64,000 nt of DNA, from positions 258,551 through 322,550 of the forward strand of contig CAZGEO010000002.1 in NCBI GenBank assembly GCA_964525295.1, in the 5' to 3' direction. The notes below the pieces were generated by a model, which was not told the origin of the DNA, ran no database searches, and was given only the letters and a program-made list of their open reading frames with translations. Positions 22,145 through 62,539 of this stretch are shown in pieces. Position 1 is the first letter of the stretch, and each line of letters begins with the position of its first letter. This stretch comes from an uncultured Candidatus Saccharibacteria bacterium. GTDB lineage: Bacteria; Patescibacteriota; Dojkabacteria; GCA-002793355. The position numbers and the translations under genes are program-made.

Positions 22145-22159
22145 ACTGATTAATAAAAC

Positions 22160-23209: not shown

Positions 23210-24226
23210 ATGTTCAGAAAATCTGCCCAAAAGAACAAAAACAGTTTTAGAAAGAAACCATCAGTTGCTCTTAACCGCCTAAATAATTCAGAATTTCGTA
23301 AAGGTTTAGGTAGAATTCTTCTCGTGGTGGGTGGCATGGTGCTTTTTTGCGCTGCAATATACGGTGGATATGTCGGCATTCGTAGTTTAATTGATTCTGG
23401 TTATAGACCAGGAAGTAGTACATTCGAGGCTTGTTCTGGGCAATTAACCTCAATTAAGGCAACTCCAATGTACGGTGCTGTATTTACGATTTCTGGTGAT
23501 TTAGTCGAGAAAATTGACATTACTGCACCTGATGGAGCAGGCCTTCACTCGCTTGAATTATCTGCTGATGCTAGGGTAATGGTTTATTTTTCTAACAACT
23601 TTATGTTTTCACAAATTGGTGAACTTTTACGATTTAGTAAACTTGAGAAGAACGCAATTGATTATTGCTTTTTGTTGGAGCAATTATCACTAACTACTGG
23701 GCTTCCTGTGGAATATATAATTGTTAATGATAAAGAAACTGGGGTAATTTCGACATTACCTCTTCGAGAGATTCGTCGAATTATTAAACAGGTCACTGAA
23801 GGGAAAAAATTAGCGTTCAAACAAAACCTTTTACCAGAGTATAGATTATCAGATGGATCTTCAGCAAAAGTTATTACTTATGCTGCGATGAAAGAACAAT
23901 TTCCCAACTTTTTCAAAATACCAGAAATTGCTCAAGAGCAGGCATTTGTCGAAGTCTATAATTCGACAAATATTGATGGTTATGCAAGCATTATCTCTAG
24001 AAAATGGTCGATGTTAGGAATTGAAATTTCAAGAGTAGGAAACAGTTCGCATGAACAACTTAGTGACGCTGTCGCAGTTGTATATGTTAAAGATGCGAGT
24101 AAGTATCAGCGAACATTAGCGATGATTAAGAGTTCACTAATTGGTGGTAAGGTGATCGTAAAAGAAGGTCGCCCTTCAAATGTGGTCACCACCGGAGATA
24201 TTGTAGTTTTCCTTCTTAAACGGTAG
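23210..24226 (+). CDS. Membrane-anchored protein with a C-terminal LytR_C-like domain
   Basis: N-terminal TM. C-terminal approximately 100 aa fit the LytR_C pattern (V.VYNST..DGYA....L...G.....G.....T.V.Y......A..I...L.GG.V......P....T.DIVV.L). Confidence 0.5.
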   Translation: MFRKSAQKNKNSFRKKPSVALNRLNNSEFRKGLGRILLVVGGMVLFCAAIYGGYVGIRSLIDSGYRPGSSTFEACSGQLTSIKATPMYGAVFTISGDLVEKIDITAPDGAGLHSLELSADARVMVYFSNNFMFSQIGELLRFSKLEKNAIDYCFLLEQLSLTTGLPVEYIIVNDKETGVISTLPLREIRRIIKQVTEGKKLAFKQNLLPEYRLSDGSSAKVITYAAMKEQFPNFFKIPEIAQEQAFVEVYNSTNIDGYASIISRKWSMLGIEISRVGNSSHEQLSDAVAVVYVKDASKYQRTLAMIKSSLIGGKVIVKEGRPSNVVTTGDIVVFLLKR

Positions 24227-24232
24227 AATAGA

Positions 24233-26668
24233 TTGTCTATGGATCCGATACTGCTCACAGTCATAATTGTTGTTTCTTTGTTTTTATTAGTGTTATTCAT
24301 TGTTGCAATTTTTCCCAAACGTAAAACGACAGAGGCTTTTCCTGCAGGAACAAATGAAAAATTGGTAGGTGTCCAAAGAGTCGTTCTTCAAATAGCAGTT
24401 CCAAAAAATAATGACAAAACTCCACTGGCTGCGGAGCAACTGTTTGCTTCTCTACACGGCCTATACAAAGAAAGTGCTGCAGTAGCAACAATGAGCTTGG
24501 AGATTGCTTCAAATGCAAAGTTTGGCGTTCAATTTTATATTGTTGCAGAGAGTTCTCAAGTAGCTTACATCAAAGGGCAAGTTTACGCGCAATATCCAAC
24601 TGCAGAAATTTCTGTGGTGTCTGATTATATGGAGCAAGCTTTGCAATGGGGGCCTTCAATTCATGTTTCTGCTGGTGAGATAATGCTTGAACGAGAGCAT
24701 ATTTTTCCAATAAAAACATTTAAAGATTTTGATGTTGATCCACTTTCAGGCATTACTGGTGCTCTCAGCGAGATGAGTGGTGACGAAGAAACCTGGATTC
24801 AATATGTGATTCGTCCATATCCTAATATGTGGCAAAAAGTTTCTCAGAAATACATATCTGCATTAAGAGCAGAAGGCAACAATATATTCGACACTCCGTC
24901 ATTTTGGAAAACTTTTTGGGGAATAATTACTGGATTCTTTCGCTATTTTTTTGATTCGTTGACATATGATCCAACAAAAGTAACTCTGCCGACTAAACAG
25001 CCTTCTATACGTCTTGAACCATATCAAGAAGAAGAGATTCGTAGGGTAGAAGAGAAATCGCAGAAGCAAGGTTTTCAAGTGGCTATTCGAATTCTTTCGA
25101 AAAGTGGAGATCCAAATAGAGCAGTACAGCTATTTGAAGGAATTGCTGCCTCTTTTAGGCAGTACGCGACTGCTCATCTAAATGCATTTACTCTCAATTT
25201 GGCAAAACCAGCAGCAGAGGTCTTTACCAATATGAAAGAACGTTACATTCCAATTGCTCATGATGAAATCTTAACAATTGAAGAAATAGCTTCAATGTAT
25301 CACTTACCAAATACAACTGGCGGATCAACTTCACTGTTTGTAACTACTGCAGGAAAATTACCACCACCTGTTGATTTACCGATTAATGAAGGTACAGTCA
25401 TTGCGCAAACAAACTATCGAGGAGAAAATCAAATCTTTGGTATCAAAAAGAAAGATAAGCGCCGTCACACATATATAATTGGTCGTACTGGTACAGGAAA
25501 GACGAGTTTAATGAGAAACATGATCGTTTCAGATATTCTGGCCGGAGAAGGTGTTGGCCTTATCGATCCTCATGGTGAAACGGCAGAATTTATACTTGAT
25601 CATATTCCTGCTCATCGCGTTGAAGATGTGATCTATTTTAATCCTGGTGATGTTGAATATCCTGTTGGTTTCAATCCAATTTATGTTAAAGATCGTAATC
25701 AACGTGATCTTATTGCTGATAATATTATTGGTGTTTTCAAGAAATACTTCGATTCTTGGGGGCCAAGGCTTGAGTATATTTTATACAATACCATTTTATC
25801 TGCACTTGACTCACAAGGAACAACCTTACTATCAGTTCAACGAATGTTGACCGATGCTGAATATCGAAAGCGTGTACTATCGCATGTAAAAGATCCGATG
25901 ATTCATAGATTTTGGCGAGAAGAGTTTAGTATGATCGAAGAAAATCGCAAACTGCTCTCAGATGCAGTAGCACCAATTCAAAATAAAATCGGGCGTTATC
26001 TTTCACCGAGAATAACTCGCAATATCCTTGGACAAACCAAATCAACATTTAATATACGCGAAATGATTGATTCAAAAAAAATATTCATAGCAAACTTATC
26101 AAAGGGGAAAATTGGTGAAGAGAATACTTCGCTGTTAGGTGGTCTTTTAATTGCACGCATTTACACGGCTGCTATGGAACGAGTCGATATACCAGAAGAG
26201 CAACGAGAAGATTTCTCACTATACATTGATGAAGTGCAAAGTTTTACTACAGATGCGTTTGTCAATATACTCTCTGAAGCTCGTAAATATCGCTTGTCGC
26301 TTGTAATTAACCATCAATTTACTGAGCAATTACCAACTGAGATGCGTTCAGGAATTTTTGGAAACGTCGGTACAATGATTGCATTTAGCGTTAGTCAAAA
26401 AGATGCAACTGTTTTAGCCCAAGAATTTGCTCCATACGTAACACCTGAAGATATTCTTGCTTTACCAAATTATCATTTGTATCTTCGTATGGTTATTAAT
26501 GACAGGATTTCGGAACCTTTCAGCGCAGTTTCATTGCCTTTTAGATATCAGCCATTTGGTTACAAGGATATCATAAAACAGATGTCTCGCGATAAATATG
26601 CAGTTCCTCGCGATGTAATTGAAGAAAAAATTGCGCGTTGGGCTGAGAATAAGGGAGAAGAATCGTAA
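24233..26668 (+). CDS. FtsK/HerA-superfamily type IV secretion-type ATPase (VirB4/VirD4/TraG-like). N-terminal TM plus an approximately 400-aa unique domain.
   Basis: Walker A GRTGTGKTS followed by LIDPHGE (the DPKGE-type motif of T4SS ATPases), Walker B LYIDEVQSF, downstream HQFTEQL Q-motif. 811 aa. Confidence 0.6.
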   Translation: MSMDPILLTVIIVVSLFLLVLFIVAIFPKRKTTEAFPAGTNEKLVGVQRVVLQIAVPKNNDKTPLAAEQLFASLHGLYKESAAVATMSLEIASNAKFGVQFYIVAESSQVAYIKGQVYAQYPTAEISVVSDYMEQALQWGPSIHVSAGEIMLEREHIFPIKTFKDFDVDPLSGITGALSEMSGDEETWIQYVIRPYPNMWQKVSQKYISALRAEGNNIFDTPSFWKTFWGIITGFFRYFFDSLTYDPTKVTLPTKQPSIRLEPYQEEEIRRVEEKSQKQGFQVAIRILSKSGDPNRAVQLFEGIAASFRQYATAHLNAFTLNLAKPAAEVFTNMKERYIPIAHDEILTIEEIASMYHLPNTTGGSTSLFVTTAGKLPPPVDLPINEGTVIAQTNYRGENQIFGIKKKDKRRHTYIIGRTGTGKTSLMRNMIVSDILAGEGVGLIDPHGETAEFILDHIPAHRVEDVIYFNPGDVEYPVGFNPIYVKDRNQRDLIADNIIGVFKKYFDSWGPRLEYILYNTILSALDSQGTTLLSVQRMLTDAEYRKRVLSHVKDPMIHRFWREEFSMIEENRKLLSDAVAPIQNKIGRYLSPRITRNILGQTKSTFNIREMIDSKKIFIANLSKGKIGEENTSLLGGLLIARIYTAAMERVDIPEEQREDFSLYIDEVQSFTTDAFVNILSEARKYRLSLVINHQFTEQLPTEMRSGIFGNVGTMIAFSVSQKDATVLAQEFAPYVTPEDILALPNYHLYLRMVINDRISEPFSAVSLPFRYQPFGYKDIIKQMSRDKYAVPRDVIEEKIARWAENKGEES

Positions 26669-31137: not shown

Positions 31138-31722
31138 ATGAAAAAATACGTCGTAATAATTTGTTTAGTTACGCTTTCTTGGATTGTAACGTTAGTAATG
31201 AGTTCACTTATTCCGAAAGTATATGGTGAACTGCCGCTTTTACCTGATTTCTTTTTTAATGTAATACCAGAAATTAAATTTGCACCCTTTTTGGCCGATA
31301 TTACGCAAGTTTTCGCTCTCGTACTTGCACTATATCTCGTAGTTAAGAAAAAATATGACCTAAGTACATTACTGCTTGCTCTAGCAATTATGTGGTTTAT
31401 TCGTGCGTTACTAATCTTTGTTACTCCAATTGGTGATCCATCTGGTGATACATATGTTTATGGATTTCTTGAACGAGTTGTCATGTATGGAATGTTTCCT
31501 TCAGGTCATACGGGGTTTTTGAGTGCAATTTTGTTTTGGAGCTATAAAGAAAAGAACAAATTCGAAAATTTGACGCTCATTGCATTACTACTGACACTTG
31601 CGTTTGCCTTGCTTTCTAGCCGAGGTCATTACACTATCGATATAGTTGGCGGTTTTGCTCTTGGTTATTTCGCCGTAAAATGGTCGGAATTACTACTTAA
31701 GCGATTTACCTTGGCAACGTAA
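31138..31722 (+). CDS. PAP2-superfamily membrane phosphatase-like protein
   Basis: PSGHTG motif, polytopic. Extended -10 TGtTACAAT lies 5 nt upstream of the ATG. Confidence 0.55.
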   Translation: MKKYVVIICLVTLSWIVTLVMSSLIPKVYGELPLLPDFFFNVIPEIKFAPFLADITQVFALVLALYLVVKKKYDLSTLLLALAIMWFIRALLIFVTPIGDPSGDTYVYGFLERVVMYGMFPSGHTGFLSAILFWSYKEKNKFENLTLIALLLTLAFALLSSRGHYTIDIVGGFALGYFAVKWSELLLKRFTLAT

Positions 31723-32993
31723 TCAGAAATTGAGAATTTCTTTGAAGCTCCTGAGGCGTTCATGTAACGTATTGAGCCGAATACTGGTCTCTCAAACCAA
31801 GGACGATCATGAACGCCACCTATTGCCCACGCAATTCCTGTATAACCATTAGGATCACGTCCATCCAACTGGTATTTATCGTTGAGATAGATTGCAACTT
31901 TTTGGGCCTCTTCTGGTGATTGTGACCATTCTAATATCTTTTTTGCCCAGTACATACGTAGGTATCCATTAAGATAACCTGATGACATCATTTCAATTTG
32001 AGCTGAATTCCAGAACGAATCATGTGTTGCAGCATTCTCAAATTGTTCCTTGGAATAAATATATTCACGGTGATCTTGTAAATGTTTTGTTAATGTAGTT
32101 TTTGCCCAATTAGGAAATCCATTGAAATTGTCATAATTATCGTTGTAGTAACAGTAGTTGTCAGCAAGTTCTTTGCGAACGATTAGTTCTTCCAGGAATT
32201 GTTCAGTTGCTATCGTTGGTTGCTGTCTTTTGATTGTTAATGCGACTTCGAGTGCCGATATGTGCCCAAGATGAAGGAATTTCGAGAGCCTCGAAGTCGC
32301 ATCTTTTAACGGATTATTGTGTAATTCATATTGTGTAATATTTTGTACAAACGTGGCGAGAGTTTTTTGTGCTTGTGAATGTACTGATTCATTTGTGACT
32401 AGTTCAAAATCTACCGGAACTTTAACTGAAGCTATTCCGAATGGGTGTTGAATGAATGCGGGTAACGCAACTAAATATTTCGATAAGTGTTTTGAAATTT
32501 TTGGTCTAAAGGTTCGTGCTGCATATTCCTGTTTAGCTGAAGTGATTGTGATTGGTACGATGTTATGCGCATCGACAACGAAGTACGGAATATTTAAATG
32601 CGGTAATAATTCAGCTTCCCATGCCTTTTTGATTCTGAGTGGCGAAAAATCAGTAAAGATTGCCGCGACCTTATTATTTGTAATGTAATACAGCAACCCT
32701 TTCGCTGGTACTTCCTCGATAATTGAAAAGGATATATTCAAATTTTTGGCTTCGTTTGCAATATTTGCTAAGCCCTTTTTCATGAATTGGAAACTTCTTT
32801 CGTTTGCTTCCAAAAATGCTTTTTGTAAGAAGAATATGATTCGCAGGGTTAATCTTCTTTCAATGGCATATGACTGTGCTTCTAGTAAGGCTGGATTGTT
32901 TTCAATTCGCTGATCTCGTGACATCCAATAGAGTACCTCGGTAGCATGGGGAATGTTTATGTTCGAATTTTTCGAGAAAATTGTTCTTTGCAT
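31665..32993 (-). CDS. phr: Class II CPD photolyase (deoxyribodipyrimidine photolyase)
   Basis: GYLRMYWAKKILEWS and GIAWAIGGVHDRPW class II signatures. Confidence 0.8.
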   Translation of the reverse strand: MQRTIFSKNSNINIPHATEVLYWMSRDQRIENNPALLEAQSYAIERRLTLRIIFFLQKAFLEANERSFQFMKKGLANIANEAKNLNISFSIIEEVPAKGLLYYITNNKVAAIFTDFSPLRIKKAWEAELLPHLNIPYFVVDAHNIVPITITSAKQEYAARTFRPKISKHLSKYLVALPAFIQHPFGIASVKVPVDFELVTNESVHSQAQKTLATFVQNITQYELHNNPLKDATSRLSKFLHLGHISALEVALTIKRQQPTIATEQFLEELIVRKELADNYCYYNDNYDNFNGFPNWAKTTLTKHLQDHREYIYSKEQFENAATHDSFWNSAQIEMMSSGYLNGYLRMYWAKKILEWSQSPEEAQKVAIYLNDKYQLDGRDPNGYTGIAWAIGGVHDRPWFERPVFGSIRYMNASGASKKFSISDYVAKVNRLSSNSDHFTAK

Positions 32994-33627: not shown

Positions 33628-33966
33628 ATGTTTGTGTGTTCCATGCAGAACAAACTGTTTATCGGTAACGTCGCGTTCGCAACAACGATCGAGACATTAG
33701 TTGCCCAATTTTCGCAGTTCGGTGAAATCACCGACTCATACAAGCCTCAGGGAAAGGGGTTTGCCTTTATTACTTTCAAGACAGATGAAGCAGCAGCAGC
33801 AGCTATCGAAGCGATGAATGGAAAGGAAGTTGACGGACGTGAACTCGTTGTCAACATTGCACGACCAAAGGAAGATCGTCCAGCACGATCTTTCGGTGGT
33901 GGTAACCGTGGTGGTTTTGGTGGCGGTTTTCGCCGCGACAACAACCGCGACAACCGTCGCTGGTAA
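33628..33966 (+). CDS. RRM-type RNA-binding protein with a Gly/Arg-rich (RGG) tail
   Basis: RNP-1 KGFAFITF and RNP-2 LFIGNV. C-terminal GGGNRGGFGGGFRRDNNRDNRRW. Confidence 0.75.
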   Translation: MFVCSMQNKLFIGNVAFATTIETLVAQFSQFGEITDSYKPQGKGFAFITFKTDEAAAAAIEAMNGKEVDGRELVVNIARPKEDRPARSFGGGNRGGFGGGFRRDNNRDNRRW

Positions 33967-39327: not shown

Positions 39328-40359
39328 CTATGCGGTTTTGCGAATAGTGATTTTACGAGCAATGAGTACGATAGCAATAACAATAAGAGCCCAATCCCCA
39401 AAGTTTACACTTGCTGGAGAAACTACCAGTTTGATTACTGCATTACTTGTAACGTAGATGAATACGCCAATTAAGGCAAATCCTAAGAGTCCAACTGTTA
39501 ATGCAAGTGACTGTGGAACTGGTCGTTCGTCTGGTTTGAGTGGAGGATTGTTTGATTTGTCTACGACGCTTGTTTCATTACTCGTTGTAGCTGAATCATT
39601 CGAAAGAGGTCGTTCATTTGTAATCGTAGAAAAGGGCAATCCAATTTTTTCGAACATTGTTTCTGAATACTTAAAGAAGGGTTCAGCTTTGTACATAATT
39701 TCACTTGTTCTGATACAGAAATAATAGGTTTCAACCGGTGATGGTTCGCCTTTATCGTTGTAAACTTCCCCCTCAAGGATTTCAATCAGATGATGTTCTG
39801 GAAAACCAAGCTTCTGGCGTAAAATCATGGCATAGGCAAACTCATGTGCATGACTAATCGGATCAGCACGGTAAGCTTCAAGGCCTCCGGGTTTTGATAA
39901 TTCGTAGTTACGAGCCTCGCCACGTTCAATCATTTTTAAATATTCTTCAAGAAGTTCGGATATATCAAGGCCGTATATGTCTGGAAGATCCTTAATCTCA
40001 AAGGCGGAGGTAATAGCACCGTTGGTCGATTCTAGAAATAGTTGATATCCAACACTTTCATTTGAAGAAAATGCAAAGGCTTTACCTGGAATTCGATAGG
40101 TTTTACCATTTGGTAGTTTTCCCTCTAGTTGCGATAAATGATTGAGGAAGTTTGGCATAGGGTAGCCGCTTCTTATGACAGTAGTATCTTTATAAACCAA
40201 TACAGTAAATATTTCATTATTCTCTTCGTGTTCAGGTTTTGTTTTTGTAATAGAAATCTGAGTATCTTCAGCGAAGAACTTCTGTATCCGCGTTTCTAGT
40301 TCAGGAATTGAATCTTCAGAAGTATTAGGAAGAACAATTGCGTCGTATTTGTAACTCAT
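39328..40359 (-). CDS. Hypothetical protein with a soluble N-terminal domain and two C-terminal TM helices
   Basis: ORF with no assignable motif. Stop/start junction with the M48 peptidase gene. Confidence 0.45.
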   Translation of the reverse strand: MSYKYDAIVLPNTSEDSIPELETRIQKFFAEDTQISITKTKPEHEENNEIFTVLVYKDTTVIRSGYPMPNFLNHLSQLEGKLPNGKTYRIPGKAFAFSSNESVGYQLFLESTNGAITSAFEIKDLPDIYGLDISELLEEYLKMIERGEARNYELSKPGGLEAYRADPISHAHEFAYAMILRQKLGFPEHHLIEILEGEVYNDKGEPSPVETYYFCIRTSEIMYKAEPFFKYSETMFEKIGLPFSTITNERPLSNDSATTSNETSVVDKSNNPPLKPDERPVPQSLALTVGLLGFALIGVFIYVTSNAVIKLVVSPASVNFGDWALIVIAIVLIARKITIRKTA

Positions 40360-40361
40360 AG

Positions 40362-41069
40362 TTAATTATAACCCGAATCGATTATTTGGGCAATTTTCTC
40401 GTTTCCAAATCTATGATACATAACGTGCCTGAGGAATTTTGGTGTTGCGGATTTCCTGTCAGAGAGTCTTTTTATTGCCTTAATAACTAGTGCTGCCCCA
40501 AGGATTTCTACTGCGAAGCGATCCGCGGCATCTTCATCTGCTCTAAACATATGGAAAAAATAGAATGCGAATGCAAGGGAAAATAGCAAGGCAACGGAGT
40601 AACTTGGTTGCATAAACAAGTATATTAAGGTCGAGGCATACAGAAAATATCTAACAATAGTTACTCGATTTGGCAGGTGTTCAAGTTGAATATGACCGAT
40701 TTCATGGGCTACAAAGTATTTCAACTCGGTCACGCTTAATGTTTCTATTGCGGTAGACGAAATGTAGAAAACCTTTTTATGAAAATCCTTGACGTAAGCA
40801 ATTAGTGAGTTCGATTGAATTATTTGAATTGAATAATCACCAAGTCTTTTAGCAAGTGATAGGGTTTCGGGTGGAATTTTCGACGTAGTAGTCGTTTTTT
40901 TGACAAAGAACTTTCTGAAGGTATCCTTACCCAAAGGAATGTATAAAATGCCAATATAGGGAAGGCTCACCAGTATGAACCCGAGCACAATACTTATTAC
41001 CGAGGCAAGAAGTGCGTGAGACAAAAATCCCCAGAAGTAGAGCAATCCTTCAAGTAGCTCAGTTCCCAT
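40362..41069 (-). CDS. M48-family (HtpX/BlaR1-like) membrane zinc metallopeptidase
   Basis: HEIGH motif plus a downstream Glu, N-terminal TM helices. Confidence 0.65.
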   Translation of the reverse strand: MGTELLEGLLYFWGFLSHALLASVISIVLGFILVSLPYIGILYIPLGKDTFRKFFVKKTTTTSKIPPETLSLAKRLGDYSIQIIQSNSLIAYVKDFHKKVFYISSTAIETLSVTELKYFVAHEIGHIQLEHLPNRVTIVRYFLYASTLIYLFMQPSYSVALLFSLAFAFYFFHMFRADEDAADRFAVEILGAALVIKAIKRLSDRKSATPKFLRHVMYHRFGNEKIAQIIDSGYN

Positions 41070-41445
41070 GCTGGTTAAACATGATCACATATCCTTCGGG
41101 ATCTTTAATAGAAAATTCGATAGTGCCATAATTTGTGTGATGTAATGGCTGTATAAGGCAAGGGTAATTGTCGAACTGTTTGTAAAGACTATGAATATCT
41201 TCTACTTCAAGAAATAAGGCAATGGTCCCAGAAGTTTTTAAGTCAGCAAAGTGCGGGATTTCTTCTACAAATTCGTTGCGACGATAAAGCATTAAGGTTA
41301 CAGGGCCGTTTGCGATTATAGCGAAAAAAGCTGCTGTTTCTGGTGACGAGTTAACAATAGAAAAATTCAGCTCTTTCGTATAAAAATCGATCATTTTTTG
41401 CATGTCATCGACAAGCAATTCGGTGACTAGAGATTTAGCTTTCAT
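41059..41445 (-). CDS. VOC / glyoxalase-bleomycin-resistance family protein
   Basis: Two beta-alpha-beta-beta-beta modules of a typical glyoxalase fold. Confidence 0.6.
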   Translation of the reverse strand: MKAKSLVTELLVDDMQKMIDFYTKELNFSIVNSSPETAAFFAIIANGPVTLMLYRRNEFVEEIPHFADLKTSGTIALFLEVEDIHSLYKQFDNYPCLIQPLHHTNYGTIEFSIKDPEGYVIMFNQHGN

Positions 41446-42826
41446 AAGATTTCTTTACCTCTTGTTGAAATAGGTCACCACGTTCTTCAAAATTTTTGAA
41501 CATGTTATAGCTAGGCGAGGCTGGTGAAAGCAGACAGATTTTGCCCTTTGCAGTTTTCTCTTTTGCAAAAGTGACTGCATCGTGCAGTGTTTCTGCAAAT
41601 AAGGTAGTAAATCTCTCTACTATCAAGGGATTTTTCTTCTTCATTAATTCCCAGATGATTGCTCCTGAAGTTGGAAGAAAGGCAATATTTTTAACGGTCG
41701 AGGTAGGCAAGTATTCAGCTATTGGGGTGAAATCTATCCCTCGATCTAGTCCCCCTAGAATAATGGTATCGACATTCTTAAGAGCTTCTATTGCCTGAAT
41801 GGCAGCCTGAGGAATTGTTGAAATTGAGTCATCGTAATAGGCTATTTCGTTATATGTACCAAAATACTGCATTCTGTGAGGGAGTGGCTCAAATTCACTG
41901 ATAACTTGTGTAATTATTTCATTTTTCAATCCTAAGTGTTTTGCCACACAGATGGCAGCCATAATATTGTATAGATTATGCTTCCCAAGAAGATGTCGCG
42001 GTGACGCAGTGTCGTATACTGCTTCTGCACCATAATAAAGGATGCCGTTTTTCTCATAACATCCATTTATAGATTCACGATCGTTTGAAAAGAAGCTTTT
42101 TTCCCCGTTGTGCGTACTTTTAGCGACAAACTCATGCAATAAAGAATGGTCACGATTATAGACCAATAGATCGTTATTTCCTTGATGTAGGAATATGTTA
42201 AGTTTTGAATTAACGTAGTTTTCGAAAGTTCCATGGTGATCAAGATGCTCCTCATACAGATTGAGCAAAATAGCAATATGAGGTGAAACACGTGAGTATT
42301 CCAATTGATATGAAGACATCTCGCAAACAACGGTGGTTGTGGTGTTGAGGGTATCTATGACATCAAATATCGGAATTCCAATATTGCCAGTTAGCACAGA
42401 ATCAGGATTGGCTTTATGAACCATCTTATAAAGTAAAGCGGTTGTCGTGCTTTTGCCCTTTGAACCTGTAATACCAATTACGTTAACAGCGTTGAATTCA
42501 AGGAGTAAATCTAACTGAGAAGTGAGTTTTGACTTAACTTCATCGTCAATTTTTCCTTCTAATGCTATGCCAGGTGTTTTAATTATTAAGTCGAAATCAG
42601 GCAATACCGAAAGATAGTTTTCGCCAAGGTGCAACGTTAAGTTTGAATCGTTCGTCAGTAAGGGTGATTCTTTGACCTTTTCAGAGGCATCGGCAATCGC
42701 AAATTTTTGCTCTGGCAAATATTTGCGCAATAATAAGTAAGCTGATTGCCCTTCTTTACCAAAGCCCAATATTAGGATTTTTTTGTTTTCAGTCTTTGCA
42801 ATAATTTTTTTTACTAACCAGTTCAT
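41435..42826 (-). CDS. murD: UDP-N-acetylmuramoylalanine--D-glutamate ligase
   Basis: N-terminal Rossmann ILILGFGKEG and Mur ligase P-loop GITGSKGKSTTT. Confidence 0.8.
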   Translation of the reverse strand: MNWLVKKIIAKTENKKILILGFGKEGQSAYLLLRKYLPEQKFAIADASEKVKESPLLTNDSNLTLHLGENYLSVLPDFDLIIKTPGIALEGKIDDEVKSKLTSQLDLLLEFNAVNVIGITGSKGKSTTTALLYKMVHKANPDSVLTGNIGIPIFDVIDTLNTTTTVVCEMSSYQLEYSRVSPHIAILLNLYEEHLDHHGTFENYVNSKLNIFLHQGNNDLLVYNRDHSLLHEFVAKSTHNGEKSFFSNDRESINGCYEKNGILYYGAEAVYDTASPRHLLGKHNLYNIMAAICVAKHLGLKNEIITQVISEFEPLPHRMQYFGTYNEIAYYDDSISTIPQAAIQAIEALKNVDTIILGGLDRGIDFTPIAEYLPTSTVKNIAFLPTSGAIIWELMKKKNPLIVERFTTLFAETLHDAVTFAKEKTAKGKICLLSPASPSYNMFKNFEERGDLFQQEVKKSYES

Positions 42827-44247
42827 AATACATTTTTAACTTTCGAAATTAGTTTCTCTGGAATAAGATTCTCAGTATCAAAAAAAGTCGAAAGATAAGT
42901 ATTCACCTCATCTGTAGAAGAGATGAGAGTAGGGTATTCATCTTTAAAGACTTGTAGTAGCTTCGGAAGTGGTTCGGTTTCTGGATGTTTTGCAAGGATA
43001 AGTGACAGAGCCATCGCAGTTTCTGCCTTAGTGCCTACACATTCAAGTGGTTTAATGAATTTGTCATCAATTAGCCCACGTAAATCAGCAAGTAGGTTTT
43101 CATTGGCAAGTAAATCACTTTTGAATACTCGGGCAAGTTCTGCGCGTGACATAAAGGCCTGCATAAGGATACTTGAGAATAGGCATTTGGAACAATTCTC
43201 GCACCATTTATTGGTTTTATTGCCTAGATTACAACTAATAAATTTTTCAAAATACTGTGGATATTTAGTAAATTCACGAGCAATTTGAATTTCAGCAAGC
43301 GGCCTTAAGAGGCTGTAGTAATTCATTTCTTTGCTAAAAGAATGCTGGAAGTAGTTGTGTAGATCTTGCTCAACTGCAAAGGTTTTTGAGTATTGATGAT
43401 TGACCTCGCTTCCTGGAACAGAACTTTCATTTGCGCTACTTTCATTCGAAAGTACAATATTCTTCTTTTTGAATAAGGCTGAGGCCAAAGCACCGTAAAA
43501 AGCGAATACGATTGATACTGGAGTGTGCCCGTTTAGGTAACCTTGCTTGTTTAGTTCAATTAATCTTGAGTCGATCGTTCTGAAGACTTCGAATATTGAA
43601 GCTTGCTCGAAACCTGCAATTTCAGCTGTATTTAGCGCACTTTGTAGGGTAAAGTTCGTATGAACCACCAGGGCTGTATTGCGAGGCATTTCTTTGAGAA
43701 GTTCCAAGGTTACAACCGAATCTTTACCACCACCAACAGGAATAATATTTTCATCACGCAGTTGAATTTCTTCTATTTCGAATTTTTTGGAATTGGCAGC
43801 TATAGTAATGCGGTTGAATTCTTCTTGTGATGTTTTGATTCCGTTTTCAAATATAAATTGACCTAACCCTTTGTAGAATTGTTTCTTCCAGAACGCTAAT
43901 TCAATTTCATCAAGAAAACTTGCCTCGATTATGATCTCGGGTGAGCACGTTACTTTCCAGTAGCTTAGTAGTTCAGAAAGCCCAATATTGAATACTATTT
44001 TATGAAGTAACGGGGATTCTGGGGTGAGTTCAAAAGCGAACTGTTTTTTCGGAATTCTAACCTCTGGGGTAAATGTTGTTAGCCCAGGAATTTCAAAGGT
44101 GAAGGAAAGAAGTACTTCGTTATCAGTTTGGTTTATTGAGTAATTTCTGTAGTAGAAGGTTGGATATTTTTGTCGATACTCTTGAAATTTTGCCTGCTCA
44201 TCTTTCATTGTTTTAATTATAACACCAGTTGTATTTGTCACGGACAT
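42823..44247 (-). CDS. Enlarged QueC-like PP-loop ATP pyrophosphatase (QueC-type core plus extra approximately 160-aa N-terminal and approximately 100-aa C-terminal domains)
   Basis: PP-loop GGGKDS. About 165 aa later a C-x9-C-x2-C-x2-C cluster (SCNLGNKTNKWCENCSKC), matching the QueC zinc-site spacing. Intervening segments align with QueC blocks as I recall them. Confidence 0.55.
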   Translation of the reverse strand: MSVTNTTGVIIKTMKDEQAKFQEYRQKYPTFYYRNYSINQTDNEVLLSFTFEIPGLTTFTPEVRIPKKQFAFELTPESPLLHKIVFNIGLSELLSYWKVTCSPEIIIEASFLDEIELAFWKKQFYKGLGQFIFENGIKTSQEEFNRITIAANSKKFEIEEIQLRDENIIPVGGGKDSVVTLELLKEMPRNTALVVHTNFTLQSALNTAEIAGFEQASIFEVFRTIDSRLIELNKQGYLNGHTPVSIVFAFYGALASALFKKKNIVLSNESSANESSVPGSEVNHQYSKTFAVEQDLHNYFQHSFSKEMNYYSLLRPLAEIQIAREFTKYPQYFEKFISCNLGNKTNKWCENCSKCLFSSILMQAFMSRAELARVFKSDLLANENLLADLRGLIDDKFIKPLECVGTKAETAMALSLILAKHPETEPLPKLLQVFKDEYPTLISSTDEVNTYLSTFFDTENLIPEKLISKVKNVL

Positions 44248-44265
44248 AGAATGTTACAATTAGTC

Positions 44266-46319: not shown

Positions 46320-47441
46320 TCAAGAGTCTCGACCTTCTGTAGTTTCAATAATTGTCTTTATTTCGTTTGCTATTGCAGTAGGCAAGTGTAGGATCTTTGT
46401 GTCTAAAAATCCTTGAGTGAGGATTTTGATTGATTCTGTTTCTGAAAGACCAAAGCTTGCAAGATATAAGAGTTGTTCTTCTGCTAGTTTCCCAATTGAT
46501 GCCTCGTGTGTTAGTTCGGTTCCTGGGGCGTTTGCTTCGAGTTCAGGAATCGCAGCTATGGAAGACTTTTGTGAAAGGAGTAGCCCCTGGCATTCAATAT
46601 GCGCGCGAGATGCCGAGTTCGCTCCGATTATTTTACCTTTTGTAATTACTGTTGCTGAATCTTTTGCTATTACGCGTGATACGATTTCTCCATGTGAATT
46701 TTCTCCGGAAAGGGTAATTGAGCCACCTACGTCTATTCTTGAAGCGCCTGTTCCGGTAATAAGGCTTGAAAGTATTGCTTGACTGTTGCTACCAAGTAAT
46801 TTTACTGCTGGAGCCATTTGAATATCGTGCACTGGATTCAATAAAACATAGTTTGAAATGAAAGTGGCGTTATCGTCAATAATCGCGGCACTTCTGGGCC
46901 TAACAAAGTTTTTGTCGTTCCAATTGTGAATCATGGTAAAGTTAAGGTAAGACCCAGGCTTGAGGTAAAATTCGGTTATTCCAACATGTGTTCTGATACA
47001 GTCTGACTCGTAGTAAGAACAGCCGGTAATGACATTTACATGGGCATTTTCTTCAACGACAACAAGGTTGTGCAGGTATTGTGCCGTAGCATCTTTCAGA
47101 AAGATACAGGTTTGTATCGGCAGATCTAGGGTGACGCCAGCTTTTACCCAAATGAAGTATCCTCCACCAAAATTTTCGTCGGTCAATTTGGTGTATTCAT
47201 CTTTGTTCTTGTCGATGGCTTTCCAAAAATAGTCTGCAACCCATTCGTAACGAGAAAGCGCAGTGCGCGTATCTAAAACGATAACTTTATCACGTAAATG
47301 TTCAGGTACAGCAGATAGTAGTTCTTGGGAGTCTTTAATGACATAAGCACCCGAACAACTTGCGAATTCTGGTGTAAAACCGACTTTAGTAGCTTTTGCG
47401 ACAAACTCAACTGGGATATTTTGCTCAATTGGTGAGGTCAT
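46320..47441 (-). CDS. Fe-S cluster assembly scaffold SufB/SufD-family protein
   Basis: SufBD beta-helix C-terminal signature. Downstream of sufC. Confidence 0.75.
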   Translation of the reverse strand: MTSPIEQNIPVEFVAKATKVGFTPEFASCSGAYVIKDSQELLSAVPEHLRDKVIVLDTRTALSRYEWVADYFWKAIDKNKDEYTKLTDENFGGGYFIWVKAGVTLDLPIQTCIFLKDATAQYLHNLVVVEENAHVNVITGCSYYESDCIRTHVGITEFYLKPGSYLNFTMIHNWNDKNFVRPRSAAIIDDNATFISNYVLLNPVHDIQMAPAVKLLGSNSQAILSSLITGTGASRIDVGGSITLSGENSHGEIVSRVIAKDSATVITKGKIIGANSASRAHIECQGLLLSQKSSIAAIPELEANAPGTELTHEASIGKLAEEQLLYLASFGLSETESIKILTQGFLDTKILHLPTAIANEIKTIIETTEGRDS

Positions 47442-48150
47442 AGCTACTTGTTTCTTTAATCTTATTGAGCACGTCGTTGGTATTAGTGAACTGCTTGCTG
47501 GTTGTTTTGTTAAGAACGATGGCAGAATCGGGTTTTACATACTCGAGAATTGCACCTTGATGGGTGACAATTATGGCAGATGCACCTGATTCGACTAAAT
47601 ACGTATTCAGTTCGGTTCCAATAATTTTCAAACTTTGTATATCAACACCCGAGTCTGGTTCGTCGAGCAAAAGTAGCTGCGGTTTTTGGAATAGTGTGAG
47701 TAATATGTCTGCCCGCTTACGTTCGCCACCAGAGAAGCCATGGTTGATGTCTCGGTTAAGGAATTCGAAGAGTTTGAATTTTTTGACTAAATCTATTTCA
47801 TCAAATAAGAGTAGTGTATCGGGCTTACGTTTGAGCGCAATATTTATCATATTACTTAAGGTAATTCCCCTTAAGGCTGGTGGATGCTGAAAGGTGAATT
47901 TGATGCCAAGAGCTGCACGTTCATTTGCGCTTAGTGACGTAAGTTCTTTGCCTGAGCAGGCGATTTTCCCCTTGATTGAAACATCTGGGTAGCCGAAAAT
48001 CGCCTTGAGCAATGTAGTTTTGCCAGAGCCATTTGCCCCAAGGAGCGCAGCGACCCCACTTAATGGAAGAGCAAAAGATAGATCATGCAAAATTTCCTTG
48101 TTGGCAACAGATAGAGATACTTGAGCTACTTCAAGAAGTGGCTGATTCAT
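47425..48150 (-). CDS. sufC: Fe-S cluster assembly ATPase SufC
   Basis: Walker A GANGSGKTT, ABC signature, Walker B LLLLDEPDSG. Confidence 0.85.
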   Translation of the reverse strand: MNQPLLEVAQVSLSVANKEILHDLSFALPLSGVAALLGANGSGKTTLLKAIFGYPDVSIKGKIACSGKELTSLSANERAALGIKFTFQHPPALRGITLSNMINIALKRKPDTLLLFDEIDLVKKFKLFEFLNRDINHGFSGGERKRADILLTLFQKPQLLLLDEPDSGVDIQSLKIIGTELNTYLVESGASAIIVTHQGAILEYVKPDSAIVLNKTTSKQFTNTNDVLNKIKETSSYDLTN

Positions 48151-49033
48151 CTTTGGGCATGTGTTTCGTTAAAAATTCCTTGACTGCGGTAAGCGAGTCA
48201 TCATCAAGAATGGAGCATTCGTGAAAAGGTACGTTATGTTTATTGAAATATTTTTTGACCGACTCACGTTTTTCTTGAGTCGCTTCATCATATTTGGTGA
48301 GTAAAACGACTTCGGGCATTGTTGAGAGTTTTTCAGAAATATTTGCCAGTTCTTCTCGCATTGATTCATATGCTTCAACTGGATCATCATTGTCGTAACT
48401 TACAAAATGAGCAATTAGGCGAGAATATTCAGTATGTTTTACAAATCCAGTACCTAGACCTTTGCCTTTATGTGCGTGATCAATTAATCCCGGTAAGTCG
48501 AGTAATCTAAGTCCATTCATTCGACCCAACTGCGGTTCAAGTGTGGTAAAAGCATAAGCACCAGCTTTCGCATCAGCATTAGTGATGGCGGTAAGTAGGC
48601 TCGATTTTCCAGCATTGGGGTAACCAATGAAAATAATGTCAGATTTGATTTTTAACGTTAGGGTAATTCGTGCTGTTCTACCGTCGGTATCGGTCATCAC
48701 TTTTTCTGGCTTGATTTTGTATTTCTTCATGGTGACTGAGCCTAATGTTCCTTTGCCACCAGATAGGGCTTTCACTAATTGTCCTTCTTCTGAGATAATA
48801 ATTTTCTTGCCTTCTTCAGTTGTAATTTCGGTTGTTAAGGGAACTTGTAAAATCAAGTCTTCACCCTTGCTCCCGTGTTTATCTCCTTTTTTACCATCTT
48901 CACCATTTTGCGCACGATATTTCTCTCCTTCAATGTAGGAGCGAAAACCATAGAGATGCGCTGCTCCTTTGAAGTAGACATCGCCACCGTTGCCTCCATC
49001 ACCACCATCTGGGCGCAATTGTAATGTAGCCAA
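48131..49033 (-). CDS. obg: GTPase Obg (Obg fold plus G domain, no C-terminal OCT domain). The true start is probably up to 20 codons upstream with a non-canonical initiator.
   Basis: Gly-rich Obg fold (PDGGDGGNGGDV) and G1 GYPNAGKSS. The in-frame upstream extension FIILLDTITITIQSGNGGRGS continues the conserved Obg N-terminus. Confidence 0.8.
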   Translation of the reverse strand: MATLQLRPDGGDGGNGGDVYFKGAAHLYGFRSYIEGEKYRAQNGEDGKKGDKHGSKGEDLILQVPLTTEITTEEGKKIIISEEGQLVKALSGGKGTLGSVTMKKYKIKPEKVMTDTDGRTARITLTLKIKSDIIFIGYPNAGKSSLLTAITNADAKAGAYAFTTLEPQLGRMNGLRLLDLPGLIDHAHKGKGLGTGFVKHTEYSRLIAHFVSYDNDDPVEAYESMREELANISEKLSTMPEVVLLTKYDEATQEKRESVKKYFNKHNVPFHECSILDDDSLTAVKEFLTKHMPKDESATS

Positions 49034-51695: not shown

Positions 51696-52622
51696 TCAAT
51701 ACCTTCGTTTTCTGCCTTTTCCGGCTTTGAGATTTGAATACTTTCTAAATTCACAACCTATTCCTTCCCAGTTTTCTGCACTAAGATATATAGGCTGGCC
51801 ATTTATGGTTGGGAGTAATAATTGTCTGTCGAATTTGCCAACTAAGTTCAGGTTAACCTGTTCCGGGGGCTCATTTTTATTCAATAATGCCATGATAGGT
51901 TTTGAGCCGGGGCCGATGGGGAATTCTTTATACAAATCAATGTATTGGGGGAATTGATAGGCAATATCTATAAGCACCTCTGTCCAAAGAAATTTTAACT
52001 TGAAACCAAATTCCGGCAGGATACGATCAAGTGCTTCGGTGACAGAGAATCTATTGAATCTCGAAATCGTTTTTGCGATTTTTGGAATAACAGTAGGGTA
52101 GTATAAACAAAAGAAATTTTCGCGCGTATTCCACTCAGAGCGTTGAATCGTGCTGATCGGAAATATATACGCAGTTCCATATTTAGGAGAAGGCAGACTA
52201 CGCAATTTTTCAGCGAGTTTAATGTTATTTTTATGGTTGAAATCTAGAAAACCAAGCTTGTCGATCGTTTCTGTCAGGGCGATACTCCTTGAAAAAAGCA
52301 TATTAAGTAACCAAAGTTGAAAGTTGGATTTCATATCAAGTTGTCTTTTGTGAAAGTAGAGGGTTTGCCTGTCAAATTCGCGGTAGATATTACAAAAGCG
52401 ATAATCGTTCAAAATTTTATCTTTTGTATACGGGCGAACTTCATTGTTCTGCTTCTTTTCCCAAATACGAAGTCGTTCCGCAATAAACTGAAATATTTCA
52501 TCTAAGACATGCTGATTTAATGAAATTTCCTTATTTGCTGACACAGGCTTGATAGTGTGGAATTCCCAATGATTGTATAGTTCACGGTATTGTCTTGGTA
52601 GCTCCATTGCAAATTTTTGCAT
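51696..52622 (-). CDS. Hypothetical protein (308 aa), unknown function
   Basis: ORF with a conserved-looking block W-x-K-x8-YTKD-x-IL-x-YRFCNIYREFDRQT. No confident assignment. Confidence 0.45.
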   Translation of the reverse strand: MQKFAMELPRQYRELYNHWEFHTIKPVSANKEISLNQHVLDEIFQFIAERLRIWEKKQNNEVRPYTKDKILNDYRFCNIYREFDRQTLYFHKRQLDMKSNFQLWLLNMLFSRSIALTETIDKLGFLDFNHKNNIKLAEKLRSLPSPKYGTAYIFPISTIQRSEWNTRENFFCLYYPTVIPKIAKTISRFNRFSVTEALDRILPEFGFKLKFLWTEVLIDIAYQFPQYIDLYKEFPIGPGSKPIMALLNKNEPPEQVNLNLVGKFDRQLLLPTINGQPIYLSAENWEGIGCEFRKYSNLKAGKGRKRRY

Positions 52623-59082: not shown

Positions 59083-59256
59083 AGACAGAATTATATCATT
59101 TAGATGATGCTGGTGGAAATAAAATATACTAAAGTGAAAGTGGGCTGACGGGGTGGGGAGTGGGCTGTAACTTCTTGATTAACCATGCTCCTTCACGTAT
59201 ACTGTTATATTGTCGCAATACATGATTGCGGTGAAAATAAAATAGAAAGACGCCCT

Positions 59257-60279
59257 ATGGCACTGCCTCAGCATTTCGCCATTGATTTTGGAACTCACTC
59301 AATTAAGCTCGTTAATCTGGTTAAGCGAGGTAAATCGATCGAACTTAGAAATATTGGATCAGCTCAAACTCCTCCAGAAGTTCTAAATAGTTATAAAGAA
59401 GAACATAAAACACAGCTAATTGATGCAATCAAAGGTTTAGTTGCAGAATCTCGTGTTCCAGAGAAAGAAGTTGCTATTGCATTGCCAGAAAGTGCAGTTT
59501 TCAGTCGTGTTCTGACGATTCCGAAAGTTAGTGACGAAGAGTTAACAGATGCCGTTTATTGGCAATTAAAACAATATCTTCCGTATCCAGTCGAAGATGT
59601 GCAAAGTGATTTCACCTCGCTAACAGTTGATCCAAGTGGTCAACGAAAAGTTTTAGCTGTAGCTGCCCCAAAGAAATTGGTTGATTTATACGTTGAACTT
59701 CTTGAAAGAGCGGGGCTCATAACAGTAGCAATCGAATCAGAAACACTAGCTATTTTACGATCACTGAAACTCGCGCACGAAGTTTCTGATGCAATTGTTC
59801 TTGATTTCGGCTCAAATACTACAGATATGGCAATAATGAAAGAAGGAGAACTATATTTCTCTCAAAGCATTGCAACAGGAGGTGATTTGTTGACGAAAGC
59901 ACTAGTCAACGAATTCCAACTTTCATTTGCTCAAGCAGAAGAGTATAAGAGAATTTATGGCATGCGATCAGATGCGGTAGAGGGCAAAATTCGTAATGCA
60001 ATGAAGCCAATACTTGACATGATTATCACCGAAGTTTTGCGTGGTATCGAATTTTATAAAACAGAAGTTGGTGCTGTTCCTCCAAATACTGTCTTGATGG
60101 CTGGCGAAGCTGCTTTACTTCCTGCATTACCAGAATATTTGAATGCGATTCTTGGATACGATGTACGCGTTGCAGATCCATGGAGGCCAATCGTAGTACC
60201 AAATAACGTTGCAGAGATCGTTCGAAAAAGCAGTCCCGCGTTTGCGACTTCAATTGGTTTATGTTTGAAAGAAGATTAG
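59257..60279 (+). CDS. pilM: Type IV pilus assembly ATPase-like protein PilM
   Basis: Actin-like fold. N-terminus ALPQHFAIDFGTHSIKLV. The track ORF starts at 59185; the conserved N-terminus begins at the internal Met. Confidence 0.8.
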   Translation: MALPQHFAIDFGTHSIKLVNLVKRGKSIELRNIGSAQTPPEVLNSYKEEHKTQLIDAIKGLVAESRVPEKEVAIALPESAVFSRVLTIPKVSDEELTDAVYWQLKQYLPYPVEDVQSDFTSLTVDPSGQRKVLAVAAPKKLVDLYVELLERAGLITVAIESETLAILRSLKLAHEVSDAIVLDFGSNTTDMAIMKEGELYFSQSIATGGDLLTKALVNEFQLSFAQAEEYKRIYGMRSDAVEGKIRNAMKPILDMIITEVLRGIEFYKTEVGAVPPNTVLMAGEAALLPALPEYLNAILGYDVRVADPWRPIVVPNNVAEIVRKSSPAFATSIGLCLKED

Positions 60280-60280
60280 T

Positions 60281-60850
60281 ATGGGAGTAAATCTACTGCC
60301 ACAAGCTAGCGAACACGATTACAAAAAGGCAGACAATTCGCTGCGTAGTTTAGTAATGATTGTTGTTTGGCTTGGTATTCTCGCCATGATATTTGTAATG
60401 CTATTCTTTAATCAGGCAGTACAAAGCGGAAAATTAAAAGAAGCTGAAGCTCGTCGAACCAATTTACTTACAAAAATCGGTAATCTTGGAACATTTCATG
60501 ACGAATACTACACGTTGGCCTATAAAACCGTAATTCTTTCGAGAATTAAAACTGAACAGTATATACCCAGCGTTATTGGTGATTATGTAAAAGAAAAGGT
60601 TGCGTCAAAAGCTACGGTACAGCAATATTATTTTGATGCGAATGGCGAAATTCGCTTATCAATTGAAGCTCCAACATTTAATAGTGCGTTGTTGATTTGG
60701 CATGATTTGTTAAAAGACAAAACTGTTATGCAAGAATTGAACCTAACCTCTTTTGGTCAAGACTCAGAAGGAAAAGTAGCCTTTCAATTGAAAGGAGTGT
60801 TGAATCTAAATGAACTTTACGAACGAAATGTCGACGGTGCTACCAACTAA
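60281..60850 (+). CDS. pilN: Type IV pilus assembly protein PilN
   Basis: NLLPQ N-terminal motif plus a single TM. Confidence 0.7.
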   Translation: MGVNLLPQASEHDYKKADNSLRSLVMIVVWLGILAMIFVMLFFNQAVQSGKLKEAEARRTNLLTKIGNLGTFHDEYYTLAYKTVILSRIKTEQYIPSVIGDYVKEKVASKATVQQYYFDANGEIRLSIEAPTFNSALLIWHDLLKDKTVMQELNLTSFGQDSEGKVAFQLKGVLNLNELYERNVDGATN

Positions 60851-61622
60851 TACACAACAACAGAATGCTAAAACGATTGCTTATGTTCAGCAACGAAAAG
60901 GCAGTAATAAGGTATATGTGCAAGGAATAGTCGCGGTAATTGTATTCGTAATTTCGTTGATAGTAGCAATTTTTATATTTGTTCCCTACATACAAAAAAC
61001 TGCAGAAATATCGAAAAAGGTTGAAGCGGTTGAGTCTGATATTACGGCACTAGAAAAGAAGTATAAAGAAATTAATGGTTATGATCGCGATGAGCTGGCT
61101 GCGCAGTTGAAGCTGGTTAGTTACTACATTCCAGATACTATCCGTGTTGCAAATTTAGCAACGTTTATTAATGCAAACGCAACTAAATATGAATTAGCTG
61201 TAGCTCGTCTAGGCATTAATGAAGACGTCGCTGAGATAAAAGCATCAGTTGACGAGGCAGAAAAATCAAGATTACTTGGTAGTTTGAAAAGTGAGAAAGA
61301 AATATTTCTCGGGCGAGTTGAGGGTCCCTTTAGTTTTAGCGGTTCGCGTGATGCAATATTTGATTTTCTCGATTTTCTCGTTTTAGGTGGTTATGCAACA
61401 AATTTTGATCAAGTAAGTATTGTTGGTGCCGGTAAAGATTCCTGGACAGTAAACTTTTTCGCAGTATATTACTACTTAGAACCATTAACAGAAGTCGAAG
61501 CCGGAAGGCAATTGGTTCCGATTCAAAAAGAATTGATTTCAAATTTAACAATTCCGGTAATTTCAACTCCTTCGGTTACGCCCTCGCCTTCAGTTAGCGT
61601 GACGCCGACAGTATCGCAATAG
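60810..61622 (+). CDS. pilO: PilO-like type IV pilus assembly protein (Ser/Thr/Pro-rich C-terminus)
   Basis: Single TM plus coiled-coil. Position after pilN. No diagnostic motif. Confidence 0.55.
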   Translation: MNFTNEMSTVLPTNTQQQNAKTIAYVQQRKGSNKVYVQGIVAVIVFVISLIVAIFIFVPYIQKTAEISKKVEAVESDITALEKKYKEINGYDRDELAAQLKLVSYYIPDTIRVANLATFINANATKYELAVARLGINEDVAEIKASVDEAEKSRLLGSLKSEKEIFLGRVEGPFSFSGSRDAIFDFLDFLVLGGYATNFDQVSIVGAGKDSWTVNFFAVYYYLEPLTEVEAGRQLVPIQKELISNLTIPVISTPSVTPSPSVSVTPTVSQ

Positions 61623-61682
61623 GATCTTTACTTGAGAAGAGATATTTGCATTGTATTAATTCATCGATTATAATTACGAGAT

Positions 61683-61755
61683 GCCAAGGTAGCTCAGTCG
61701 GTAGAGCATGCGCCTGAAGAGCGCGTGGTCGTCAGTTCGATTCTGACCCTTGGCA
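61683..61755 (+). tRNA. tRNA-Phe (anticodon GAA), CCA not encoded
   Basis: Manual cloverleaf: acceptor gccaagg/ccttggc, D-arm gctc-agtcggta-gagc, anticodon loop ctGAAga, T-arm gtcag-ttcgatt-ctgac. Confidence 0.9.
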
Positions 61756-61791
61756 TTTTTTACGACTATTCCAAATATAGTATGATTAAGA

Positions 61792-62490
61792 ATGAAGAGT
61801 AAGTTGATTATTTTCGGAGTCGTATTTGCCGTTGTTTTGTCATTTTCTCTGTACGTATACTGGGGAACAAGAGTAACTTCAATTGAGTTTAATCCTAATA
61901 ATTCATTAGATTCTGCCATTGATCAGGCAGTACCGCTATGTGTTGGTTCAGTAAGCAATCAATCATTTTTCTCACTAGATGAAAAAAGTATTGAAAAGAA
62001 AGTCATTGATTGTGATCCAAGAATTACAACTGCAAACGTGCAAACAAGTTTTCCTCAGAAGGTAGTAATTTCATATAAAGTTATTGAACCCGTACTTCGT
62101 CTTAATCAAAATTCAGATGAATCTTGCCTCGTAGTTGAGTCTTTTGCAGTTATGAAATCATTAGCAAAAGAATATTGTTTACTTCTTCGCATTCCAGAAA
62201 TTACAGGAGCAGTTAAAGCTGATAATCCGTTTATGTTGTCGTATGTCGTAGAACTGGTTAGTAAATTACGAACAAAAGAAATTATGACTGAAAAAGTGAC
62301 TGTACAAAGTGATGGGTATTCGTCATATTATGAAATAGATTTAGCAACAAAAAAGAAGATTCTTGTGCCTGATGGCGCAAACATTGATAGTAAAATACTC
62401 GTCATTTATGAATCATTGAAAGGCCTAGAACAATCAAAAGAAGGCTATTCGGTTGTTGATTTCAGAATTGACACCGTAATTTATAGGTGA
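61792..62490 (+). CDS. ftsQ: FtsQ/DivIB-like cell-division protein
   Basis: N-terminal TM plus a POTRA-like region. Immediately upstream of ftsA-ftsZ. Confidence 0.55.
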   Translation: MKSKLIIFGVVFAVVLSFSLYVYWGTRVTSIEFNPNNSLDSAIDQAVPLCVGSVSNQSFFSLDEKSIEKKVIDCDPRITTANVQTSFPQKVVISYKVIEPVLRLNQNSDESCLVVESFAVMKSLAKEYCLLLRIPEITGAVKADNPFMLSYVVELVSKLRTKEIMTEKVTVQSDGYSSYYEIDLATKKKILVPDGANIDSKILVIYESLKGLEQSKEGYSVVDFRIDTVIYR

Positions 62491-62539
62491 TAAAGTGTTG
62501 GTAGATTCGAATAGACGATTAATTGATTAAACAATTGAT

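Follow-up and report, generated by a model that had tools for sequence, protein, structure and literature searches.

The window analysed here (64,000 nucleotides of contig CAZGEO010000002.1) carries on its minus strand two overlapping genes, murL and murD2 (Table 1), which very likely encode the MurL/MurD2 alternative route to peptidoglycan D-glutamate (D-Glu), without a glutamate racemase, in a Candidatus Dojkabacteria genome of the candidate phyla radiation (CPR, Patescibacteria). In this route MurD2 would add L-glutamate (L-Glu) and MurL, an ATP-dependent epimerase, would convert the terminal Glu of the precursor from L to D. Judged by sequence, the pair is a divergent further member of the known MurL/MurD2 system and not a new enzyme. 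A sequence-only reading of the same DNA had suggested a novel amidoligase applying QueC adenylation chemistry to a cell-wall or protein substrate; the class of chemistry and the cell-wall link were retained, and the novelty and the type of reaction were given up in view of the homology to the MurL epimerase. The flag of a possibly novel enzyme can be exchanged for a specific annotation, by which murL and murD2 would supply peptidoglycan D-Glu. The host was placed by means of the PheT encoded in the window, whose named relatives (56%, 53%, 43% and 32% identity) all belong to Candidatus Dojkabacteria, a CPR lineage also known as WS6.

Assignment to the MurL family

The window protein was matched by the NCBIfam model NF041275 with E=3.9e-70 and 236.6 bits (query residues 26–472, profile positions 5–445 of 447), and precomputed Pfam assignments to PF26299 (MurL_N) and PF26298 (MurL_epimerase_C) were present for this exact protein and for all 120 listed homologues. 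A Pfam scan with a copy that predates the MurL families returned no match at E<=0.01, and none to the QueC family PF06508. Homology to UDP-N-acetyl-alpha-D-muramoyl-L-alanyl-L-glutamate epimerase (MurL, EC 5.1.1.23; XOO_1319 of Xanthomonas oryzae) extends from end to end with an equal three-part architecture, all family-invariant motifs are present, and the gene order, murL then murD2, is that of the known system. XOO_1319 and the adjacent MurD2 (XOO_1320) jointly complement a D-Glu auxotroph, and MurL is described in two reviews by its discoverers as a protein without known conserved domains (PMC8788868; PMC5808125). By analogy, the window enzyme would catalyse a unidirectional L-to-D epimerization of the precursor's terminal Glu with conversion of ATP to AMP; this stoichiometry has been established with the enzymes of Xanthomonas, Micromonospora and Salinispora and is carried over here by homology. 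Unlike the MurL hosts listed in reviews (Gamma- and Alphaproteobacteria, rare actinobacteria), the host of the window is a CPR bacterium of the Dojkabacteria.

In the protein, an N-domain of ~160 amino acids (aa) precedes a PP-loop core, to which a C-terminal helical region is joined, and this architecture was backed by a predicted model, which bears out the additional N- and C-terminal domains described earlier. The PP-loop GGGKDS (residues 172–177) and a Cys4 cluster (C339-x9-C349-x2-C352-x2-C355) were invariant across 32 diverse homologues that were aligned, as were NGHTP (239–243), LSNE.SA.E (266–274), NHQYSK (283–288) and the single residues Cys101, Cys403, Lys98 and Lys121; Cys403 lies in an invariant KP..C403.G motif of the helical C-terminal region. 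Relative to most homologues, the window protein has a 3-residue insertion (HTNFTLQ) after the second beta-strand of the core.

Substrate signature of the partner ligase

The murL stop overlaps the murD2 start by 4 bp (ATGA; ...GTA TTA TGA / ATG AAC TGG), as had been read from the sequence before. The ligase scored 343.5 bits against TIGR01087 (murD; cutoff 212), and because this generic cutoff is exceeded, it is labelled a D-Glu ligase by annotation pipelines. Chirality positions were read from a pairwise alignment to Escherichia coli MurD (YEEH, GGLDRGIDF) and compared between 73 MurDs that adjoin a MurL in other genomes and five crystallised D-Glu ligases, each of a different species (3LK7, 7SIR, 4BUC, 7SY9 and E. 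coli MurD). The window ligase has Glu, Ile, Arg, Pro and Tyr at E. coli positions 182, 319, 348, 414 and 416, respectively. Position 182 was Glu in 68 and Asp in 5 of the MurL-linked ligases, versus Asp in four and Thr in one of the canonical enzymes; position 319 was Ile in 73/73, a clade-wide residue in a comparison outside which the X. oryzae sequence lies, versus Lys in all five; position 348 was Arg in all 73, versus Lys in four and Arg in one; and position 416 was Tyr in 72 and Phe in one, versus Leu in two, Phe in two and Trp in one.

In X. oryzae MurD2, Glu197 and Arg358 stand in place of E. coli MurD Asp182 and Lys348, and Pro433 and Phe435 in place of Ala414 and Leu416; the E197D/R358K double mutant turns MurD2 back to D-Glu, and K319T makes E. 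coli MurD accept L-Glu (PMC8788868). The Glu/Arg pair by which MurD2 is recognized (equivalents of E. coli 182 and 348) was thus found in the window ligase, which further shares with X. oryzae MurD2 the Mur-ligase fold, Pro414 and an aromatic residue at 416 (Phe in X. oryzae, Tyr in the window). Two close homologues of the window ligase are named "UDP-N-acetylmuramoyl-L-alanine---L-glutamate ligase" by the Joint Genome Institute (JGI). The product of the window "murD" is very probably an L-Glu ligase, and a partner of this type creates the need for an epimerase. Glu182, Ile319 and Arg348 together may serve as a simple sequence signature separating MurD2 from MurD.

Genomic linkage, distribution and fusions

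MurL relatives were detected in at least 596 genomes when each species was represented by a single genome; the taxa among the matches listed were Clostridia, Bacteroidales, Erysipelotrichales, Delongbacteria and Saccharibacteria. For locus comparison, 80 loci were taken from these genomes, with no Xanthomonas locus and without the genome of the window itself. Of the 80, 78 had a same-strand murD homologue downstream of murL, and in 76 it lay within 300 bp. Together with the closest relative of the window locus (L087), where the order is murL-murD2-VOC-DEAD helicase, this supports a conserved linkage to murD across relatives, which the earlier reading had proposed as a check. L087 is 76% identical to the window in MurL (over the 296 residues present) and 73% in MurD2; no other homologue of either protein exceeds 49% identity to the window proteins. 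In most of the 80 loci the pair stands alone, outside the division and cell wall (dcw) cluster; in three Erysipelotrichales loci it comes ~3 kb downstream of a same-strand ftsI-mraY, a place roughly matching that of murD in the dcw order of E. coli.

When 1.84 billion cluster representatives were searched exhaustively, 2,400 MurL-like clusters (50% identity) were obtained at E<=1e-3; with E<=1e-30 the number was 1,004. Many representatives were 830–1,250 aa long, and all ten of the long proteins that were scanned (P0364, P0369, P0387, P0389, P0401, P0404, P0411, P0428, P0436 and P0495; gene-calling artefacts are possible) were fusions to cell-wall enzymes. MurL was joined to a Mur ligase in both orders, to MurB (MurB-MurL, P0495) and to a Mur ligase followed by an M20 peptidase (P0411); in P0436 the fused ligase has a MurC/MurE-type N-domain (PF01225). 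These fusions are independent evidence for a role of MurL in cytoplasmic peptidoglycan precursor synthesis. Judged by these homologues, the MurL/MurD2 route is common well beyond the taxa named in reviews, in Clostridia, Bacteroidota, Erysipelotrichales and CPR lineages.

Fold and proposed mechanism

In the predicted model, the MurL core has a QueC-like three-dimensional structure, its nearest structural relatives are QueC and Cap9, and MurL is grouped structurally with both. The QueC hallmarks reported for the window protein earlier need qualification. Canonical QueC (7-cyano-7-deazaguanine synthase, PF06508; PDB 3BL5) has the motifs SGGxDS and C(x)8CxxCxxC, along with others such as YxQxHxxE and VPxRN (PMC13329287), whereas the window protein, which does carry a PP-loop and a Cys4 cluster, has GGGKDS and a first spacer of x9, i.e. 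near QueC spacing but not identical to it. MurL further differs from QueC by additional domains at its N-terminus (about 150 aa) and C-terminus (about 110 aa) and in substrate and outcome (epimerization of UDP-MurNAc-dipeptide versus nitrile formation). An hhalign comparison of the MurL profile with one E. coli QueC sequence aligned the Cys clusters without reaching significance (probability 4.5%, E=0.009). When the family profile was run against PDB sequences, the sole match was a 38-residue PP-loop segment of TtuA (E=0.003), and no MurL structure was found in the PDB by phmmer or by this profile. No paper in the library searched combined "MurL" with "PP-loop" or offered a core of this kind as the structural basis of the epimerase, and MurL, peptidoglycan and epimerases are unmentioned in a 2026 survey of the QueC family (PMC13329287).

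The PP-loop ATP-pyrophosphatase fold of the model would be compatible with ATP-to-AMP chemistry. In the proposed mechanism, the QueC/Cap9-like core would bind ATP and adenylate the alpha-carboxylate of the terminal Glu (adenylation is a published hypothesis), in parallel to the carboxylate chemistry of QueC on 7-carboxy-7-deazaguanine. The acyl-adenylate would acidify the C-alpha proton, and deprotonation would be followed by reprotonation from the opposite face, with Cys101 (N-domain), Cys403 (C-terminal region), Lys98, His241 and His284 as candidate acid/base groups; alternatively, an oxazolone intermediate may be formed. Hydrolysis of the D-acyl-adenylate would free AMP and presumably make the reaction one-way. 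As in QueC, the Cys4 cluster is probably a structural Zn site, and the ATGA overlap may couple the translation of MurL and MurD2.

If true, PP-loop adenylation of the Glu alpha-carboxylate with subsequent two-base or oxazolone-mediated inversion would explain the 'unprecedented' ATP-consuming epimerase, and the kinship with QueC and Cap9 would supply a mechanistic frame and candidate catalytic residues. A wider proposal is made tentatively and with slightly more doubt than confidence: a QueC/Cap9-type PP-loop and Zn-ribbon core with family-specific flanking domains may be the first structural rationale for this epimerase, and the MurL/MurD2 pathway may also be the sole source of D-Glu in a reduced CPR genome and is far more widely distributed than the published hosts. 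Generic models call the partner a "D-glutamate ligase", and it is almost certainly an L-Glu ligase. MurL has been proposed as a narrow-spectrum antibiotic target.

Weighing of alternative explanations

Several points weigh against the assignment to the MurL/MurD2 route. The 236.6 bits of the window protein fall short of the equivalog cutoff of NF041275 (700 bits), so that, by sequence, it is a distant MurL and not one of the Xanthomonas type; NF041275 is a clade-specific model (named MurL_Xanthmoales) trained on Xanthomonadales, and a score this far below its cutoff indicates distance from that order rather than exclusion from the MurL family. The clade of the window MurL was assigned to the family from sequence. 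Catalytic roles of Cys101 and Cys403 and the binding of Zn were deduced from conservation only. Asp182 is retained in five of the 73 MurL-linked ligases and Arg348 is shared by the streptococcal D-Glu MurD, so that no residue is fully diagnostic by itself. Finally, the search that found no glutamate racemase or D-amino-acid aminotransferase covered the 64-kb window only.

A QueC-derived amidoligase, which would adenylate a carboxylate carried by a peptidoglycan precursor or protein and couple it to an amine, would be in keeping with the nearest structural relatives, since QueC and Cap9 carry out carboxylate adenylation followed by amine attack, and the sub-cutoff equivalog score formally leaves room for functional drift in the window clade. 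It is nevertheless very improbable given the end-to-end homology to a characterized epimerase family, the L-Glu signature of the partner ligase with its need for an epimerase, and the catalytic-looking motifs, whose invariance across the whole MurL family argues for one common reaction; nor was a glutaminase or amine-donor partner conserved beside MurL in the 80 loci. An anti-phage protein of the QueC family, conjugating 7-deazaguanine to protein as a QatC- or Cap9-like enzyme, is effectively refuted by genomic context and hardly merits consideration: the conserved neighbour is murD in nearly all loci compared, with fusions to Mur enzymes, and no QatA/B/D, Cap10-like or CD-NTase genes were found among the Pfam matches for open reading frames (ORFs) of at least 120 aa across the window. 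PADLOC returned 0 matches for the window MurL even at E<=1. Cap9 and QatC, which belong to type IV CBASS (cyclic oligonucleotide-based anti-phage signalling system) and QatABCD defence, also differ from MurL in zinc motif, that of QatC being C(x)19CGxCxxRR (PMC13329287), and the context of MurL is housekeeping cell-wall synthesis. The sequence-only reading had likewise noted no QatA/B/D or Cap10 partner, and no queD, queE, queF or tgt nearby; the latter families were again absent from the same set of Pfam matches. A QueC paralogue making preQ0 or a tRNA-thiolation enzyme (TtuA/NcsA/TtcA), to which the PP-loop, the Cys cluster and the TtuA match might point, can be dismissed almost entirely; the TtcA/NcsA membership that the earlier reading had named as its possible undoing was displaced by the assignment to MurL (NF041275, PF26299 and PF26298).

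A different kind of alternative accepts the enzymes as MurL and MurD2 and makes them auxiliary to a canonical MurI/MurD pathway whose genes lie in another part of the genome. This is unlikely without being negligible: gene inspection covered 64 kb of the genome, MurI is common in the groups to which many MurL-bearing taxa (Bacteroidales, Clostridia) belong, and the pair is free-standing in most loci. Against it, the dcw cluster of the window (mraZ-rsmH-ftsI-mraY) is without murD, redundancy is rare in the small genomes of CPR bacteria, and the pair follows ftsI-mraY in the three Erysipelotrichales loci.

Gene start, local operon and cell-wall context

The maximal murL ORF encodes the 474 aa reported earlier, but translation probably begins at Met14 (coordinate 44208; 461 aa), because homologues start at this residue, residues 1–9 of the model have a predicted local distance difference test score (pLDDT) <50, and a mere 3 bp separate the first ATG from the YibE/F gene, which starts divergently at 44251. 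With Met14 the spacing would be 42 bp (44208–44251). With starts this close, both promoters must sit within neighbouring coding sequences; promoter (consensus-based) and terminator scans of 37.8–44.7 kb performed no better than on shuffled sequence.

Table 1. Coordinates of murL, murD2 and associated features in the window
Feature	Position	Strand	Remarks
MurL	42823..44247	(-)	maximal ORF, 474 aa
MurL_N domain	about residues 14–160 of MurL	(-)	
QueC/Cap9-like PP-loop core of MurL (predicted)	about residues 163–360 of MurL	(-)	GGGKDS 172–177; Cys4 cluster 339–355
C-terminal region of MurL		(-)	helical; KP..C403.G motif
MurD2-type ligase	41435..42826	(-)	TIGR01087 and Mur_ligase_M domain
VOC/glyoxalase-bleomycin-resistance family protein	41059..41445	(-)	128 aa; 11-bp overlap with murD2 stop
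M48-like peptidase	40362–41069	(-)	tightly packed downstream
Predicted membrane protein	39328–40359	(-)	343 aa; tightly packed downstream
Reduced dcw cluster	18558–23203	(+)	mraZ-rsmH-(gap)-ftsI-mraY
ORF after dcw cluster	23210–24226		weak LytR_C match only

The VOC gene is probably co-transcribed with murD2; it also follows murD2 directly in L087 (2271–2657) and in 0 of the 80 other MurL loci. Neither the VOC and M48 genes nor the downstream hypothetical genes were conserved partners in those loci, and the M48-like peptidase and membrane protein genes are local operon passengers, as they are not conserved with murL-murD2 elsewhere.

Peptidoglycan, envelope and division genes of the window comprise a class A penicillin-binding protein, a sortase, FtsQ, FtsA, PilM and the reduced dcw cluster, which lies 18 kb from murD2 on the opposite strand and in which none of murE/F/D, ftsW, murG and murC follows mraY. 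A surface protein with Ig-like domains (409–1356, minus strand) is encoded beside the sortase (1426–2091), which suggests a Gram-positive-like envelope and is consistent with a peptidoglycan-bearing CPR cell. A PilM-like type IV pilus assembly ATPase, two ORFs without Pfam match (60281–61622), tRNA-Phe, an FtsQ-like POTRA protein and FtsA occupy 59185–63826 (plus strand), so that the division genes FtsQ/FtsA lie ~40 kb apart from the mraZ cluster.

Other genes in the window

The dcw genes are directly followed by a gene (24233–26668, plus strand) for an 811-aa ATPase that resembles a type IV secretion coupling protein and has the ATPase domains TrwB_AAD_bind and DUF87 (HerA-like). One RRM_1 RNA-recognition motif makes up a 107-aa protein (about 33643–33966, plus strand) near a photolyase (31665–32993) and a cupin gene. 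A short Obg-like GTPase (GTP1_OBG and MMR_HSR1; 300 aa, TTG start; 48131–49033, minus strand) shares 20 bp with the start of the gene for a SufC-like ABC ATPase (47425–48150, minus strand), after which comes a SufB/D-like gene (46320–47441). A gene with an HMUDK_hel domain (PF18723; about 303 aa, 51696–52622, minus strand), unusual in a CPR genome, has a 3-demethylubiquinone-9 3-methyltransferase-like gene on one side and a small hypothetical gene on the other.
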